DNA of 64,000 nucleotides, from contig JAKAHY010000002.1 in assembly GCA_021814695.1 (NCBI GenBank), forward strand, positions 8,920 to 72,919, written 5' to 3'. Source of the stretch: a bacterium (lineage in GTDB: Bacteria > Patescibacteriota > Minisyncoccia > UBA6257 > JAGOQP01). This document shows positions 1,931 through 49,184 of the stretch, piece by piece (position 1 is the stretch's first letter; every line of letters begins with the position of its first letter). The notes beneath the pieces are model-generated. The model did not search any database, had not been told where the DNA came from, and saw nothing but the letters and a program-made list of their open reading frames with translations. The translations under genes were made by a program, and so were the position numbers.

Positions 1931-2152
1931 TTAGCCGCGCTTCGCTTTGGAGGATGCCGAGACCTTGTGAGTCCCGGCGACGGCCACGCCGCGGTTGGCG
2001 GTGGCCAGGTCGGCCTGAGTCCTCCGCTTGGCCGCCCGGTTCGCGTGCTTGACGCTGTGACGGTCCTTGGGCGCGGTCTTGCCGCAGCGCCCGTTGGGGT
2101 GGCGGTTGCCGCCACCCGAAACCCGACAGTGACACAGTTCGCACACGGCCAT
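1931..2152 (-). CDS. Small basic Cys-containing protein (73 aa) of unknown function; GC-rich and probably foreign
   Basis: GGGAGG lies 6 nt upstream of the ATG. By hand count, 63 of 73 codons end in G/C, in an AT-rich genome. It has 4 Cys (CxxCxC...C) and is K/R/A/G-rich. It has its own promoter and terminator. The N-terminus MAVCELC only faintly recalls the L28 family. Confidence 0.6.
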   Translation of the reverse strand: MAVCELCHCRVSGGGNRHPNGRCGKTAPKDRHSVKHANRAAKRRTQADLATANRGVAVAGTHKVSASSKAKRG

Positions 2153-2229: not shown

Positions 2230-2256
2230 AAAACAAAATCACCCGCAAGGGGTGAT
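2230..2256 (-). terminator. Terminator downstream of the GIY-YIG unit
   Basis: On the minus strand: ATCACCCC-ttgc-GGGTGAT followed by TTTGTTTT. Confidence 0.7.
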
Positions 2257-2265
2257 CTTATTTTT

Positions 2266-2290
2266 GTGGAGATGGGAGAGTTGGCTCCGA
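2266..2290 (-). repeat. Duplicate of the tmRNA 3' end (T-loop end, T-stem 3' strand, acceptor 3' strand)
   Basis: The minus strand reads TCGGAGCCAACTCTCCCATCTCCAC. The genuine tmRNA end at 2672-2697 reads GAGTTCAACTCTCGCCATCTCCAC. About 19 nt are shared, with one 1-nt indel. Confidence 0.8.
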
Positions 2291-2530
2291 CTAAACTAAA
2301 TGCTTGTTTCTAAAAGCTATTCCCGAACCACTTTTCAGATATTTTTCAAAGTTGATCGCCTGTTCCTTGTTATGAAAAGTGCAGTGCCAAGCAATAATAA
2401 ATGGCGCTCTACTTGAGCTATATTTGGAACCATAACTATTATGTTCCAATAGTCTTTTCTTAATATCAATTGTGATGCCCGTATAGAAACTCCCATCTTT
2501 TAAACTGCGAAGAATATAGACAAAATACAT
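2291..2530 (-). CDS. GIY-YIG (URI-domain) nuclease family protein, minimal 79-aa form
   Basis: It has MYFVYILRS...GSFYTGITIDIKKRLLEHN (GIY..YIG..R..H-N) and a later E (NKEQA). A TATAAT box (2541-2546) lies 10 nt before the ATG, giving a very short leader. Confidence 0.85.
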   Translation of the reverse strand: MYFVYILRSLKDGSFYTGITIDIKKRLLEHNSYGSKYSSSRAPFIIAWHCTFHNKEQAINFEKYLKSGSGIAFRNKHLV

Positions 2531-2671
2531 ATTATCTATAATTATATGGCCCTCCTTCGCATAAAGCTACGGAGGACTCACTACTCGCACCATAAAACTC
2601 CCCAGATGGGGAGTTTTATTGCAATGCTTCTTGTGCAAGGAGTGCTTGCACTACGAAGCCTTGGCGAAGTA
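2531..2671 (-). other. Hairpin-rich leader ('type B' motif) between the tmRNA and the GIY-YIG ORF
   Basis: It contains CTTCGCCAAGGCTTCGTAGTGCAAGC, a terminator-like AAAACTCCCC-atct-GGGGAGTTTT, and CCTCCGTAGCTTTATGCGAAGGAGG. The first and last motifs recur after tRNA-Gly(UCC), at 47838-47943 and 48066-48174. Confidence 0.6.
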
Positions 2672-2988
2672 GTGGAGATGGCGAGAGTTGAACTCGCGTC
2701 CAGAAAGAGGGATTGAAAGCGTCTACGGGCGTATCTTCTTTTGGAAGCTGATTTGCTTTCTGATTGTCCCTACGGATACGAAAGCGCTTTCCGTGGGTAA
2801 GCCTCAAATATAACACCGGCGATTTCCCCATGAGACATCGGGAGCCGATGGCTTACGCACGAACTAAAAAGTTCTTAAGCGTATGCAAGTGCTACATTTC
2901 TGTTAGCAGATTTGTTTTGGCGGATTTACAAGTCGCCGCTTGACCCGCAACTTTCAAAGAACTCTATCTGTCAAAGCCCAGCATCCCC
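2672..2988 (-). ncRNA. ssrA: tmRNA (SsrA), about 317 nt
   Basis: The 5' GGGGATGCTGGGCTTTGAC pairs with the 3' ...CATCTCCAC, giving G3:U70. The T arm is GCGAG-TTCAACT-CTCGC. An internal tag frame GCT AAC AGA AAT GTA GCA CTT GCA TAC GCT TAA encodes ANRNVALAYA* (2875-2907), which resembles E. coli ANDENYALAA. It is adjacent to smpB. Confidence 0.88.
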
Positions 2989-3426
2989 TTAGGCAATATG
3001 TTTTCTTACTTGGCGCTCGGTTTCCCTTTTTTTAATCGTTTCTCTCTTATCCGTTTTCTTCTTGTGAACGCCCAGTCCTATTTCAAGCTTTATTTTACCG
3101 CGCTTGTTATACAGCTTAAGGGGCACCAGAGTCAAGTTTTTGGATGATGCTTGACCGACAAGAGCGATAATTTCCGACTTTTTTGCCAAAAGTCGGCGCG
3201 ATCGGCGAGGATCGAAATCTTTGGGTGTATTTTTCTCCTGGTAGGGGCCAATTGTTGCGCCAACCAGCCAAAGCTGTCCTCCATAAATTTTAACCAACGA
3301 CCCGACAACACTGGCTTTACCGGAGCGGATAGCTTTAGCCTCATGGCCCAAAAGTTCAATTCCGGCATTTAAAGTGTCGGAAATTTCGTAATCAAAATAG
3401 GCTTTTTTGTTTTGGATTGATTCCAT
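2989..3426 (-). CDS. smpB: SsrA-binding protein SmpB
   Basis: It has NKKAYFDYEI...GIEL.G.E.K and a basic C-terminal tail. Its stop codon directly abuts the tmRNA 5' G. Confidence 0.93.
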   Translation of the reverse strand: MESIQNKKAYFDYEISDTLNAGIELLGHEAKAIRSGKASVVGSLVKIYGGQLWLVGATIGPYQEKNTPKDFDPRRSRRLLAKKSEIIALVGQASSKNLTLVPLKLYNKRGKIKLEIGLGVHKKKTDKRETIKKRETERQVRKHIA

Positions 3427-30337: not shown

Positions 30338-30466
30338 GGGTGTTGACGGGGTAGGATGCGGGGTGGTCGAGGGGCTGCAAGCCCCTCGTGTTGGAAATTA
30401 TTCAAAACCGAGGGTTTTGAAGGAGCGAATATAATGAGCGACGTCCGATTTCCCGTTACCCGCTCA
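30338..30466 (+). repeat. tRNA-3'-end-capped structured repeat ('type A' unit), Gly(GCC) copy
   Basis: It reads GGGGTGGT, P1 CGAGGGGCT-gca-AGCCCCTCG, TGTTGGAAA, P3 TTCAAAACC-gag-GGTTTTGAA, then ...GAGCGACGTCCGATTTCCCGTTACCCGCTCA. The last ~20 nt repeat the tRNA-Gly 3' end. Confidence 0.8.
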
Positions 30467-30502
30467 AAAACAAAAAGCACCACAAGGGTGTTTTTTGTTT
30501 TC

Positions 30503-30653
30503 TGTCCGCCCGGAAGGGAGTCTCACGTCGCTCCGACATTGCGTCGGAGCTCCCAAGACACCCTCGGTTTCTTGACGCTCCTCCGGAGCTTTTTCCTACA
30601 CGGGAGATTAAGCATCTCCCGACCCCTCTCTATTCAATTCCTTGTTGACGAAC
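30503..30653 (-). repeat. Type A unit, Lys copy 2
   Basis: On the minus strand it reads GGAATTGAATAGAGAGGGGT, P1 CGGGAGAT-gctta-ATCTCCCG, TGTAGGAAAAAG, CTCC-gga-GGAG, CAAGAAACC-gag-GGTGTCTTG, GCTCCGAC-gcaat-GTCGGAGC, then GACGTGAGACTCCCTTCCGGGCGGACA. Confidence 0.8.
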
Positions 30654-30689: not shown

Positions 30690-30827
30690 TGTCCGCCCGG
30701 AAGGGAATCTCACGTCGCTCCGACCTTGCGTCGGAGCTCCTTAAAACCATTCGGTTTTAATATTTCCTCCACGGAAAACCTTCGGTTTCCCGACCCCATC
30801 CGATTTGATTCCTTTACTGACGAATAT
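30690..30827 (-). repeat. Type A unit, Lys copy 1
   Basis: On the minus strand it reads GGAATCAAATCGGATGGGGT, P1 CGGGAAACC-gaa-GGTTTTCCG, TGGAGGAAA, AAAACC-gaat-GGTTTT, GCTCCGAC-gcaag-GTCGGAGC, then GACGTGAGATTCCCTTCCGGGCGGACA. Confidence 0.8.
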
Positions 30828-30865
30828 AAAACAAAAAGCACCACAAGGGTGTTTTTTGTTTTCTG

Positions 30866-30938
30866 TCCGCCCGGAAGGGATCGAACCTTCGACCGTCTCC
30901 TTAAGAGGGAGCTGCTCTACCAGCTGAGCTACGGGCGG
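30866..30938 (-). tRNA. tRNA-Lys (anticodon CTT)
   Basis: The acceptor stem is CCGCCCG/CGGGCGG (C1:G72). The D arm is GCTC-AGCTGGTA-GAGC. The anticodon loop is CTCTTAA. The T arm is GAAGG-TTCGATC-CCTTC. CCA is not encoded. Confidence 0.88.
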
Positions 30939-47837: not shown

Positions 47838-47960
47838 AAAATATCCCGACAAGTGAGGGGATTTTGTATAGTCCTTCTTCGCATAAAGCTTCGAAGGACA
47901 CTTTTCGTCTGGCTTGCACTTCGTAGCTCGCCAGGGCGAAGAAGTGAGCGGGTAAGGGGA
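47838..47960 (-). repeat. 123-nt direct repeat, copy 1 (tRNA-Gly 3' end + type B motif)
   Basis: By eye it is identical to 48066-48188, at an offset of 228 nt. On the minus strand it reads CCCCTTACCCGCTCA, then CTTCTTCGCCCTGGCGAGCTACGAAGTGCAAGC...GTCCTTCGAAGCTTTATGCGAAGAAGGAC...ATCCCCTCACTTGTCGGGAT. Confidence 0.85.
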
Positions 47961-48062
47961 AGTCTTACGCTCACCCCCGACCCCCGCTTAAGAAACCTTC
48001 GGGTTTCTTACGTCCCTATTTTCCAACACGGGGGTTCGCATTCGACTCCCAAACTCACCCAC
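47945..48062 (-). repeat. Type A unit, Gly(UCC) copy (variant arrangement)
   Basis: On the minus strand it reads GGGAGTCG-aatg-CGAACCCCCG, TGTTGGAAAATA, TAAGAAACC-cgaa-GGTTTCTTA, then GGGGGTCGGGGGTGAGCGTAAGACTTCCCCTTACCCGCTCA. Confidence 0.7.
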
Positions 48063-48065
48063 AAA

Positions 48066-48188
48066 AAAATATCCCGACAAGTGAGGGGATTTTGTATAGT
48101 CCTTCTTCGCATAAAGCTTCGAAGGACACTTTTCGTCTGGCTTGCACTTCGTAGCTCGCCAGGGCGAAGAAGTGAGCGGGTAAGGGGA
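48066..48188 (-). repeat. 123-nt direct repeat, copy 2 (overlaps the genuine tRNA-Gly(UCC) 3' end)
   Basis: See copy 1. Its upstream end is the real T-stem and acceptor 3' strand of the tRNA at 48175-48245. Confidence 0.85.
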
Positions 48189-49052: not shown

Positions 49053-49184
49053 GATGAATCAGGGTCGGTTTGAATATTTAGGGGTCGGGGTATTTGTAAA
49101 TACCCCGAGTAAGAAAATTTGAGAAACCGTGGGTTTCTCACGAACGAATGAAATGAGTGAGGTGAGATTCCGGTACGGTCCACA
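49053..49184 (+). repeat. Type A unit, Ala(UGC) copy
   Basis: It reads GGTTTGAATATTTAGGGGT, P1 CGGGGTATTT-gta-AAATACCCCG, AGTAAGAAA, TGAGAAACC-gtg-GGTTTCTCA, then ...GAGGTGAGATTCCGGTACGGTCCACA. The last 19 nt repeat the tRNA-Ala 3' end. It ends 4 nt before ATG 49189. Confidence 0.8.

Follow-up and report, generated by a model that had tools for sequence, protein, structure and literature searches.

The smpB-tmRNA locus

The 64,000-nucleotide (nt) stretch considered here, referred to as the window, comes from a member of the Patescibacteriota (Minisyncoccia; UBA6257; JAGOQP01; assembly GCA_021814695.1, contig JAKAHY010000002.1, positions 8,920 to 72,919 of the forward strand). Directly behind its transfer-messenger RNA (tmRNA) gene lies a gene for a minimal GIY-YIG nuclease. 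On the minus strand the order is smpB, tmRNA, a 140-nt hairpin leader, the GIY-YIG open reading frame (ORF), a copy of the tmRNA end and a terminator. A sequence-only reading of the window had laid out this arrangement, and all the features it listed were found in their places. Leader and ORF together (2291–2674) are called the cassette below. The cassette sits exactly at the 3′ end of the tmRNA gene, or of a tRNA gene in relatives, and the RNA gene is left intact. Positions are those of the window unless an L number, denoting one of the loci or contigs compared, precedes them.

The tmRNA gene is the target that adjoins the cassette. It is full length (2670–2988, minus strand; Rfam RF00023, 114.6 bits; 2672–2988 according to ARAGORN) and its 3′ terminus reads ...GAGTTCAACTCTCGCCATCTCCAC. 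Immediately upstream is the host gene smpB (2989–3426, minus strand; PF01668, E 1.6e-44), whose product of 145 amino acids (aa) is encoded identically on a 94-kb contig of the same genome (L081). The locus is closed by a bidirectional terminator-like hairpin (2231–2265, minus strand) comprising a stem-loop at 2238–2256 and a T-run.

The nuclease

The ORF (2291–2530, minus strand) is intact and encodes a 79-aa GIY-YIG nuclease of the Slx1/UPF0213 type. It matches the GIY-YIG profile PF01541 over residues 1–67 with 52.7 bits against a cut-off of 22.6. The search for homologues returned 1219, the majority exactly 79 aa long and the majority from Patescibacteria. Seven residues (Y5, Y16, G18, R26, H30, N31 and E62) are invariant in 29 relatives; they include the catalytic-type set, namely the Tyr of GIY (Y5), the Tyr of YIG (Y16), Arg (R26), His (H30) and Glu (E62), all of which are intact in the window protein. 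A C-terminal motif, FEKYLKSGSGxAF, distinguishes the subfamily. The nearest solved structures are those of the UPF0213 proteins BH0048 (1ZG2, E 6.2e-14) and EF2693 (1YWL, 2.7e-8), followed by chains of the SLX1 structure-specific endonuclease (E about 5e-6 to 5e-4). Closest relatives and a stand-alone domain free of auxiliary domains both place the protein in the Slx1/UPF0213 (YhbQ-like) group, and the minimal stand-alone domains of UPF0213 and SLX1 have been assigned to one ‘Slx1 cluster’ [Dunin-Horkawicz et al. 2006; PMC1564403]. The NCBIfam model for group I intron endonucleases gives a weak match to the window protein (20 bits, cut-off 56). No second GIY-YIG copy was found in the window by tblastn, and an exact-sequence look-up returned no identical record.

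A TATAAT box read from the sequence (2541–2546, minus strand) stands 10 nt ahead of the ATG, as the earlier reading had noted, and similar boxes occupy the equivalent position in L001, L003, L004 and L090. A consensus scan with two hexamers called no full −35/−10 promoter there.

The leader and its hairpin motif

The leader (2531–2671) contains a perfect 13-bp inverted repeat and two copies of a conserved hairpin motif, which bears out the hairpin-rich character ascribed to these ∼140 nt. The first copy, Form A (CAC TAC TTCGC CAAG GCTTCG TAG TG, then CAAGCAC), lies at 2641–2674 on the minus strand with its core at 2654–2668, and its stem takes in the last 3 nt of the tmRNA. The inverted repeat, which is terminator-like, follows at 2592–2619 (minus strand) and is also found in the leader of L090. 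Next comes GCGAGTAGTGAG (2577–2588, minus strand), which on inspection of the sequence repeats in inverted form, with two 1-nt gaps, the end of the tmRNA and the first part of Form A (CTCCACTACTTCGC); in the Patescibacteria alignment its counterpart, CGAAG-x′, changes together with the end of the tRNA. The second motif copy, Form B (TCCTCC GTAGC TTTAT GCGAA GGAGGG; 2550–2576, minus strand, core 2556–2571), is the reverse complement of Form A.

The motif is an imperfect palindrome, x-TTCGC-loop-GCTWCG-x′, with an identical consensus in both orientations. It is concentrated just ahead of the ORF, where the 300-nt bin has 30 and 45 hits and other bins have about 1 each. Its outer stem is Watson-Crick paired in 83–89% of cases at positions 2–5 and 74% at position 6, with three to five standard pair types at each position, and the covariation at all five positions exceeds that in 500 of 500 shuffles. 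G-T pairs make up 0–6% of the outer stem, and the core holds two conserved mismatches. The orientation symmetry and the rarity of G-T pairs suggest that a DNA-level site would fit the motif better than an RNA structure.

The placement of the motif is as regular as its sequence: its offset from the RNA gene end is fixed in 40 of 55 loci. The Form A core begins 0–6 nt (mode 3) past the annotated end in 26 of the 55, the stem absorbing the last 3–6 nt of the tRNA, and the Form B core begins at +9 or +10 in 14. Patescibacteria leaders follow a common plan of tRNA end, Form A and GCAAGCAC, then 50 variable nt, a perfect inversion of ‘tRNA end + Form A start’, Form B, a TATAAT-like box and the ATG. 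Across this alignment, changes in the variable arms are matched by changes at the end of the tRNA, and the window has all the blocks. Between the window and L090 (5126–5280) the leader is 93% identical over 130 aligned nt, against 76% for smpB and 74% for the nuclease ORF at the DNA level and 64% for the SmpB protein, so the non-coding part is the most constrained part of the cassette.

Rfam, searched at both gathering and permissive thresholds, has no match for the leader, the hairpin motif or the gene-less elements described below; weak hits to SpF41 and Phe_leader fall below thresholds and were treated as chance. In the 64 kb of the window the motif occurs at two loci only, both at RNA gene ends. 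The second is a pair of Form A and Form B without an ORF directly after tRNA-Gly(tcc) (48066–48173, minus strand; cores at 48150–48168 for A and 48106–48121 for B), which recurs at 47838–47945 inside a 123-nt perfect direct repeat. This hairpin pair is the true gene-less derivative of the cassette in the window. Members of the cassette family each have a minimal Slx1/UPF0213-type nuclease gene with its own −10 box and at least one copy of the palindrome, with copies in both orientations.

Position behind tRNA and tmRNA genes

To survey relatives, one genome per species was scanned, giving 80 loci, of which the 69 with at least 700 nt of upstream sequence were counted. A tRNA or tmRNA gene on the same strand ends within 700 nt upstream of the nuclease gene in 54 of these 69, with a median gap of 140 nt (interquartile range 111–229 nt). 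The chance expectation, taken from the density of tRNA genes elsewhere in the same loci, is 1.1% (binomial P about 3e-92), and none of the surveyed nuclease genes has a tRNA gene on the opposite strand within 1 kb. The partners are the tmRNA in 18 loci and otherwise tRNAs of 14 amino-acid specificities (Ser in 10, Ala in 9, Lys in 3, and others). The hosts include Patescibacteria, Bacteroidota, Omnitrophota, Planctomycetia, Elusimicrobia, Fibrobacteres, Verrucomicrobia, Alphaproteobacteria and Acidobacteria; one of the Bacteroidota carriers is the isolate Flagellimonas beolgyonensis KCTC 23501 (L040). The sequence-only reading had suspected a tie to 3′ ends and had held that the idea would fail if GIY-YIG genes of similar size showed no such preference; the bias is strong, and the RNA gene is always upstream and on the same strand. 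A search of the full-text literature, with subscription journals mostly outside its reach, found no description of minimal GIY-YIG cassettes linked to tRNA genes, and an earlier account may exist.

Mobile replicons contribute little to the family. In collections of phages and plasmids the only relatives are about 40% identical; they belong to Rhizobium phages and to a Sinorhizobium replicon, and none adjoins a tRNA gene. Among 2.9 million viral contigs two encode relatives, neither with a tRNA nearby. A phage vehicle was considered and is rejected for now, the family being nearly absent from phages, plasmids and viral contigs.

Divergent GIY-YIG genes also occur on the other side of the tmRNA. 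L089 and L090 carry a second, more divergent ORF (E ∼1e-17; 231 nt) between smpB and tmRNA, ending 451 nt before the tmRNA 3′ end. In L131 such an ORF, of 234 nt, lies in the same interval and ends 417 nt before the tmRNA 3′ end; directly after the tmRNA of L131 stands a solo Form A hairpin that no ORF follows.

Signs of movement in relatives

A subset of the loci surveyed carries copies of the 3′ part of the neighboring tRNA, as a mobile cassette might leave. In L022, L023, L028, L031, L037–L039, L046, L056 and L057 the ORF has behind it a perfect or near-perfect copy of 14–25 nt from the tRNA 3′ end. The Bacteroidota loci L022, L023 and L039 share one order: the tRNA (...T, then TCGAATCC...CCGC) is followed by Form B and the ORF, and then by Form A and CAAG; the next 20 nt copy the tRNA 3′ end perfectly, and beyond them begins the native flank. 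In L031 and L057 the repeat runs on through the hairpin, reaching 51 nt in L031. The mirror order of Form A, ORF, Form B and copy is seen in L038 (Patescibacteria), L028 (a metagenome-assembled genome classified only as ‘bacterium’) and L046 (Planctomycetia). In the Bacteroidota (B-ORF-A) and in L038 and L046 (A-ORF-B) the ORF stands between an inverted motif pair, as a gene does between the terminal repeats of a DNA transposon. In the window, and likewise at most loci of Patescibacteria, the two motif copies both precede the ORF and are not at opposite ends. Cassettes occur in tandem in L010, L015 and L020.

Two sites can be compared in occupied and unoccupied form. The first is the tRNA-Ser(tga)/LacI locus of L031. 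L173 and L174, with LacI 99% identical, are occupied like L031. In L172 (LacI 86%) the tRNA 3′ end is followed by TTTA, a hairpin, 30 nt and the LacI stop codon, with neither nuclease gene nor repeat; this solo hairpin is either the product of recombination between 51-nt repeats or the state before insertion. In L175 (LacI 73%) the same tRNA 3′ end is followed by a plain terminator with no motif, as expected of a naive site. The second is the tmRNA site, which shows presence and absence at one fixed position in the manner of homing: it is occupied in the window and L090, empty in L087 and filled by a different insert in L085 and L086. Empty sites therefore exist at the tmRNA (L087), where the sequence-only reading suggested looking for them, and at tRNA-Ser(tga) (L172, L175). 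Among 35 Patescibacteria loci selected through SmpB and extending at least 400 nt past the tmRNA, 5 have the nuclease gene directly after the tmRNA, 6 have a gene-less insert with a duplicate and the rest have neither; duplicate contigs account for two pairs in each class.

The duplicate of the tmRNA end

Immediately past the ORF stop codon, at 2290–2266, the minus strand reads TCGGAGCCAACTCTCCCATCTCCAC. This segment is made up of a 7-nt remnant, TCGGAGC, and an 18-nt duplicate of the tmRNA 3′ end (2266–2283). The 18 nt reproduce the final 19 nt of the tmRNA, which begin in the T-loop, with one deletion (18/19). The local score is 15.5, and 200 shuffles of the 1500-nt downstream sequence gave at most 11.5. 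The duplication of ∼19 nt with one indel that was read from the sequence is therefore real. It forms a direct repeat that begins within the RNA gene and extends to its 3′ end, with the gene restored, as at genomic islands.

The closest relatives found, L085 and L086 (SmpB 87%), help to explain its origin. In both, the tmRNA is followed by a terminator and a 130-nt insert, and then by 19 nt that copy the tmRNA end perfectly and another terminator; no nuclease gene follows the tmRNA. The 5′ arm of the insert is complementary to the copy, and the L086 insert folds strongly (z = −7.6). The two share with the window both the duplicate and the right junction, TTTAGTCAGAGC followed directly by CAACTCC..., and the last 12 nt of their insert plus the copy align with the window from the stop codon onwards (TTTAGTCRGAGC, then CAACTC..CCATCTCCAC). 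L087 (SmpB 86%) has an empty tmRNA site. L090 (SmpB 64%) carries the same cassette as the window and, behind it, a gene-less element with a decayed duplicate, of the type found at the window tRNAs (61 bits with the covariance model R1 described below). In L006 and L042 the order is tRNA, gene-less insert, duplicate and cassette, Form A beginning right after the duplicate.

The proposal that the nuclease made the duplicate at 2266–2290 is not supported by these loci: L085 and L086 possess duplicate and junction without a GIY-YIG gene, and L090, L006 and L042 combine the cassette with a separate gene-less insert that bears its own duplicate. The shared duplicate and junction in L085 and L086, together with the order in L090, indicate that the repeat bracketing the cassette is probably composite. 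Two families would share the niche, the cassette having replaced most of an older element of the L086 type and left its last 25 nt, so that 2266–2290 is probably the 3′ arm of that element. We hold this to be somewhat more probable than its denial.

The best of the alternatives is that the cassette generated 2266–2290 itself on insertion, making 2266–2697 a single element with its target duplication. In L022, L023, L031, L039, L056, L057 (Bacteroidota), L038 and L028 a copy of the tRNA 3′ end directly adjoins the cassette, separated from the ORF by nothing but the hairpin motif, and the window duplicate begins in the T-loop as theirs do. The window, however, has no hairpin motif between ORF and duplicate, since both of its copies lie upstream of the ORF. 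Furthermore, the homology to L085 and L086 takes in the 12 nt preceding the duplicate as well as the duplicate, and in L090 it is a separate element behind the cassette that carries the duplicate. Single insertion of this kind is therefore unlikely, although not far-fetched.

L085 differs from L086 by ∼600 nt of extra sequence (L085 2623–3210), which is placed exactly after the tmRNA-end duplicate and contains a 106-aa ORF (2727–3047) with no Pfam match. Its position suggests that the pseudo 3′ end serves again as an insertion point.

Gene-less structured elements

Duplicated tRNA ends are found elsewhere in the window. The sequence-only reading reported them next to six tRNAs; the duplications are real, and they accompany five of the eight tRNAs. 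Copies of the last 16–23 nt lie 142–228 nt downstream of the tRNAs Gly-gcc, Lys-ctt, Pro-cgg, Gly-tcc and Ala-tgc, and each of the five copy scores exceeds all 200 shuffles. Because Lys-ctt has two elements in tandem, there are six element copies at the five tRNAs, at 30338–30465, 35540–35680 and 49056–49184 on the plus strand and at 30504–30651, 30691–30823 and 47946–48082 on the minus strand. They are ∼110–140 nt long with the conserved blocks GGGGTCGGGG-hairpin-CCCCGTGTAGGAAA ... AAACCGAGGGTTT ... GAGCGACGTGAGATT, and nine predicted pairs show compensatory changes. In each, the 5′ segment is a degenerate inverted copy of the duplicate and the 3′ end is the 16–23-nt tRNA copy itself.

A covariance model of these window elements, R1, finds strong matches in L089 and L090 only, where elements of the same family stand behind the tmRNA-GIY cassette (L089 2795–2953; L090 5560–5718). 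The elements of the window thus form a lineage-restricted subfamily. The gene-less inserts of L086, L096, L099, L108, L123, L006 and L042 are too divergent for a joint model. Inserts behind the tmRNA of other Patescibacteria (L085 2434–2622, L086 918–1106, L096 1032–1220, L099 1116–1321, L108 1511–1660 and L123 1287–1439) nevertheless belong to several sequence types that follow one plan: a terminator, a 5′ arm complementary to the acceptor 3′ strand of the tmRNA, hairpins, a perfect copy of 14–20 nt of the tmRNA 3′ end and a second terminator.

It had been suggested that the gene-less tRNA units might be non-autonomous relatives of the nuclease cassette. None of the six carries the cassette hairpin motif, and they share no ends with the cassette; with a model of their own (R1), they are a separate family.

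Long repeats flank some of the elements. One element lies between the two copies of the 123-nt perfect direct repeat (47838–47960 and 48066–48188, 100% identical). This repeat starts with the final 15 nt of tRNA-Gly(tcc) and also takes in the pair of cassette-type hairpins and a terminator; its perfect identity points to a recent event. A perfect 53-nt repeat (30467–30519 and 30828–30880), comprising a bidirectional terminator and the tRNA-Lys 3′ end, brackets the two tandem elements between the convergent tRNA-Gly(gcc) and tRNA-Lys(ctt). These long repeats span the T-loop through to the terminator, on the same principle as the 51-nt cassette repeat in L031. The middle copy at the Lys-ctt pair has a different terminator, and no simple order of events accounts for the arrangement.

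Known self-cleaving or guide RNAs do not describe the gene-less elements. Hammerhead, hepatitis delta virus-like, twister, pistol and hatchet ribozymes were set aside, there being no Rfam match and the core sequences not fitting. Guide-RNA scaffolds of the TnpB or IS110 type were likewise rejected, as no such domain is found among the called genes looked up and the 123-nt repeat far exceeds a guide. The called genes at ∼1–12 kb and 24–64 kb of the window include none with a recorded recombinase domain.

A proposed selfish cassette and rival readings

The positional bias, the flanking duplications and the empty sites are together best read as signs of a mobile, homing-like cassette. Our favored reading overall, that leader and ORF form a small selfish cassette at RNA gene 3′ ends and that the duplicate beside it in the window is composite, has about an even chance of being right in both its parts.

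A possible route can be outlined. An Slx1-like nuclease would recognize DNA structures, namely the palindromes of the cassette and perhaps an extruded T-arm, which as a structure is a 5-bp palindrome around a 7-nt loop. It may nick or cut unoccupied sites at the T-arm, the 3′ end or neighboring hairpin structures, and recombinational repair from an occupied copy would then install the cassette. A fresh insertion would duplicate the segment from the T-loop to the insertion point, lying between two structure-directed breaks, and later recombination between the repeats could delete the cassette and leave a solo hairpin. The cassette would land immediately 3′ of any tRNA-like 3′ end, real or duplicated.

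Several points weigh against the favored reading. The mechanism is one that we infer from sequence comparison. The repeats measure 14, 16, 17, 18–19, 20, 25 and 51 nt and so lack the constant length of a fixed target duplication; this variation speaks against a classical transposase and for a recombination-based route. Most Patescibacteria loci have no duplicate at all. The homology to L086 upstream of the window duplicate spans 12 nt, and the duplicate could be the cassette's own. The 79 aa are nearly all GIY-YIG domain plus a conserved tail of 12 aa, with no room for a separate DNA-binding domain, a region that known homing endonucleases possess. In a rough protein tree the sequences group mainly by taxon and within taxa by tRNA partner, with partner switches in L006 (Leu), L005 (Ile) and L016 (Arg), which are nested in other clades; cassettes therefore appear to persist vertically for long periods and to change sites occasionally. 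Finally, the phage, plasmid and viral-contig collections reveal no vehicle for transfer.

The same tree would suit a nuclease that is a domesticated host factor tied to tRNA or tmRNA, with a part, for instance, in RNA processing or in the maintenance of heavily transcribed RNA genes. Its position would then reflect co-expression, the hairpins would be regulatory or terminators and the duplications would stem from other elements. Besides clades that track taxonomy and tRNA partner, the near absence from phages and plasmids, the greater constraint on the leader than on the ORF and the fusion of prokaryotic Slx1-like domains to the tRNA methyltransferase TrmH (PMC1564403) are in keeping with this. 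A host function sits poorly with a range of partners that takes in the tmRNA and 14 amino-acid specificities, with switches within clades, or with tandem copies and perfect direct repeats around the gene. The gene is also patchy among close relatives (L085–L087 against the window; L172 against L031), and the occurrence of the motif in both orientations with few G-T pairs fits DNA better than RNA. A host factor is on balance improbable.

Slightly more improbable still is that the nuclease acts in trans on the gene-less tRNA elements, which would be non-autonomous passengers whose duplications it makes. Both kinds of element duplicate the T-loop to the 3′ end, sometimes through the terminator, both have long repeats (123 nt at Gly-tcc and 53 nt at Lys-ctt; 51 nt for the cassette in L031), and they co-occur in genomes and loci (the window, L089/L090, L006 and L042); in the checked parts of the window, moreover, none of the called genes has a recorded integrase or transposase domain. 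Yet the two kinds have no motif or terminal sequence in common, the tmRNA elements of L085/L086, L096, L099, L108 and L123 have no GIY-YIG gene on their contigs (which are short), and a host recombinase elsewhere in the genome is an equally good candidate. That the unit is the stump of an integrase-mediated island in the tmRNA (attL ... attR), mostly deleted and with the nuclease as leftover cargo, is very improbable: the duplicate from T-loop to 3′ end does match the classical island signature, but random stumps would not leave a gene 40–300 nt from the RNA gene end in 54 loci with a hairpin at fixed offset, and neither the unit nor the annotated genes in the regions checked include an integrase gene or fragment.

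What the cassette may mean

Few small proteins of unknown function are as common as the stand-alone minimal GIY-YIG proteins (UPF0213/YhbQ-like). The finding that a tRNA or tmRNA gene immediately precedes the nuclease gene in 78% of the loci counted, with a conserved hairpin at fixed offset, offers a testable role for this orphan family, and such a strong and simple genomic rule for abundant tiny nucleases is the main value of the locus beyond the window. If mobile, the cassette would be among the smallest protein-coding mobile elements known and would target tRNA genes without a recombinase. Mobility would also account for some of the tRNA 3′-end fragments with which the genomes of Patescibacteria and Bacteroidota are littered and by which island-finding software is misled. 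Hairpin motif and protein make a simple biochemical pair, perhaps of use as a structure-directed nicking tool. The same few nucleotides in the window are probably contested by a pair of unrelated small elements, and repeats at the flanks are by themselves no proof of which element produced them.

A bolder proposal is that these loci represent a new class of minimal prokaryotic mobile elements, in which a lone 79-aa Slx1-like, structure-specific nuclease recognizes its own palindromes and an extruded T-arm, inserts at tRNA and tmRNA 3′ ends, a sequence that no cell can afford to lose, duplicates the segment between structure-directed nicks and may also drive the gene-less elements. We put it forward tentatively, as it is rather less probable than the favored reading.

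Other features of the window

Seven of the eight window tRNA genes and the tmRNA gene encode no CCA, ending with the discriminator base and then C. A gene for a CCA-adding enzyme (PolyA_pol, tRNA_NucTran2_2) lies among the window tRNA genes at 32150–33643. In three independent short-read assemblies with identical SmpB (L082, L083 and L084) the contigs all stop inside the tmRNA gene, ∼230–245 nt before its 3′ end, which corresponds to 2902–2915 of the window; these breaks could reflect population variation or coverage.

A GC-rich island (66–73% GC against ∼40% regionally) occupies 1875–2174. It contains an ORF (1931–2152, minus strand) for a 73-aa protein rich in Cys, Arg and Lys, which is called as a gene in the same genome (L081) and has no family match. 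A promoter-like site, TTGACA-17-TATGTT, precedes this ORF at 2219–2191, just past the terminator of the unit. In L086 the second terminator and IF3 lie ∼130 nt apart, and nothing that matches the island was seen between them.

Comparison with known systems

The best structural matches of the nuclease, UPF0213/YhbQ and SLX1, consist of the same minimal domain, which lacks a C-terminal Asn. Unlike the cassette family, they have no described mobility, tRNA linkage or hairpin motif.

A duplicate of a tRNA or tmRNA gene from T-loop to 3′ end is the classical signature of an integrated island, reportedly described by Williams in 2002 and 2003. Integrase islands of the T-loop sublocation resemble the cassette in leaving the RNA gene intact and placing a T-loop-to-3′-end repeat on the far side. 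They differ in that the insert here measures 0.3–0.4 kb with no tyrosine or serine recombinase gene in the unit, the repeats are variable, some extending through the terminator (51–123 nt), and many copies have no repeat.

REP/REPIN-RAYT systems are similar in their inverted pairs of imperfect palindromes, a single small nuclease gene and mostly vertical inheritance. Forms A and B make up such an inverted pair in the leader, with a covarying stem, and a gene-less hairpin pair comparable to a REPIN is present at Gly-tcc in the window. RAYT, however, is an HUH/Y1 enzyme, whereas the only protein of the cassette is a GIY-YIG nuclease, and REPINs are scattered genome-wide, in contrast to a motif found at two loci in 64 kb. 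No link between GIY-YIG nucleases and REP sequences was found in the literature search, most subscription journals being outside its reach.

The closest worked example is SegB of phages T4 and T6, a GIY-YIG enzyme that cuts tRNA-containing DNA, after which recombination at short homologies duplicates the tRNA-segB segment (PMC13096335). Its gene, like that of the cassette nuclease, neighbors tRNA genes or lies within a group of them. SegB and related enzymes are encoded by phages, are well over 150 aa longer than the 79-aa protein and have DNA-binding domains. The cassette protein, by contrast, belongs with its 79 aa to the Slx1/UPF0213 cluster, is chromosomal in many phyla, is accompanied by a hairpin motif and is nearly absent from phage collections. 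Presence and absence at a fixed site, and co-conversion, would be expected of both.

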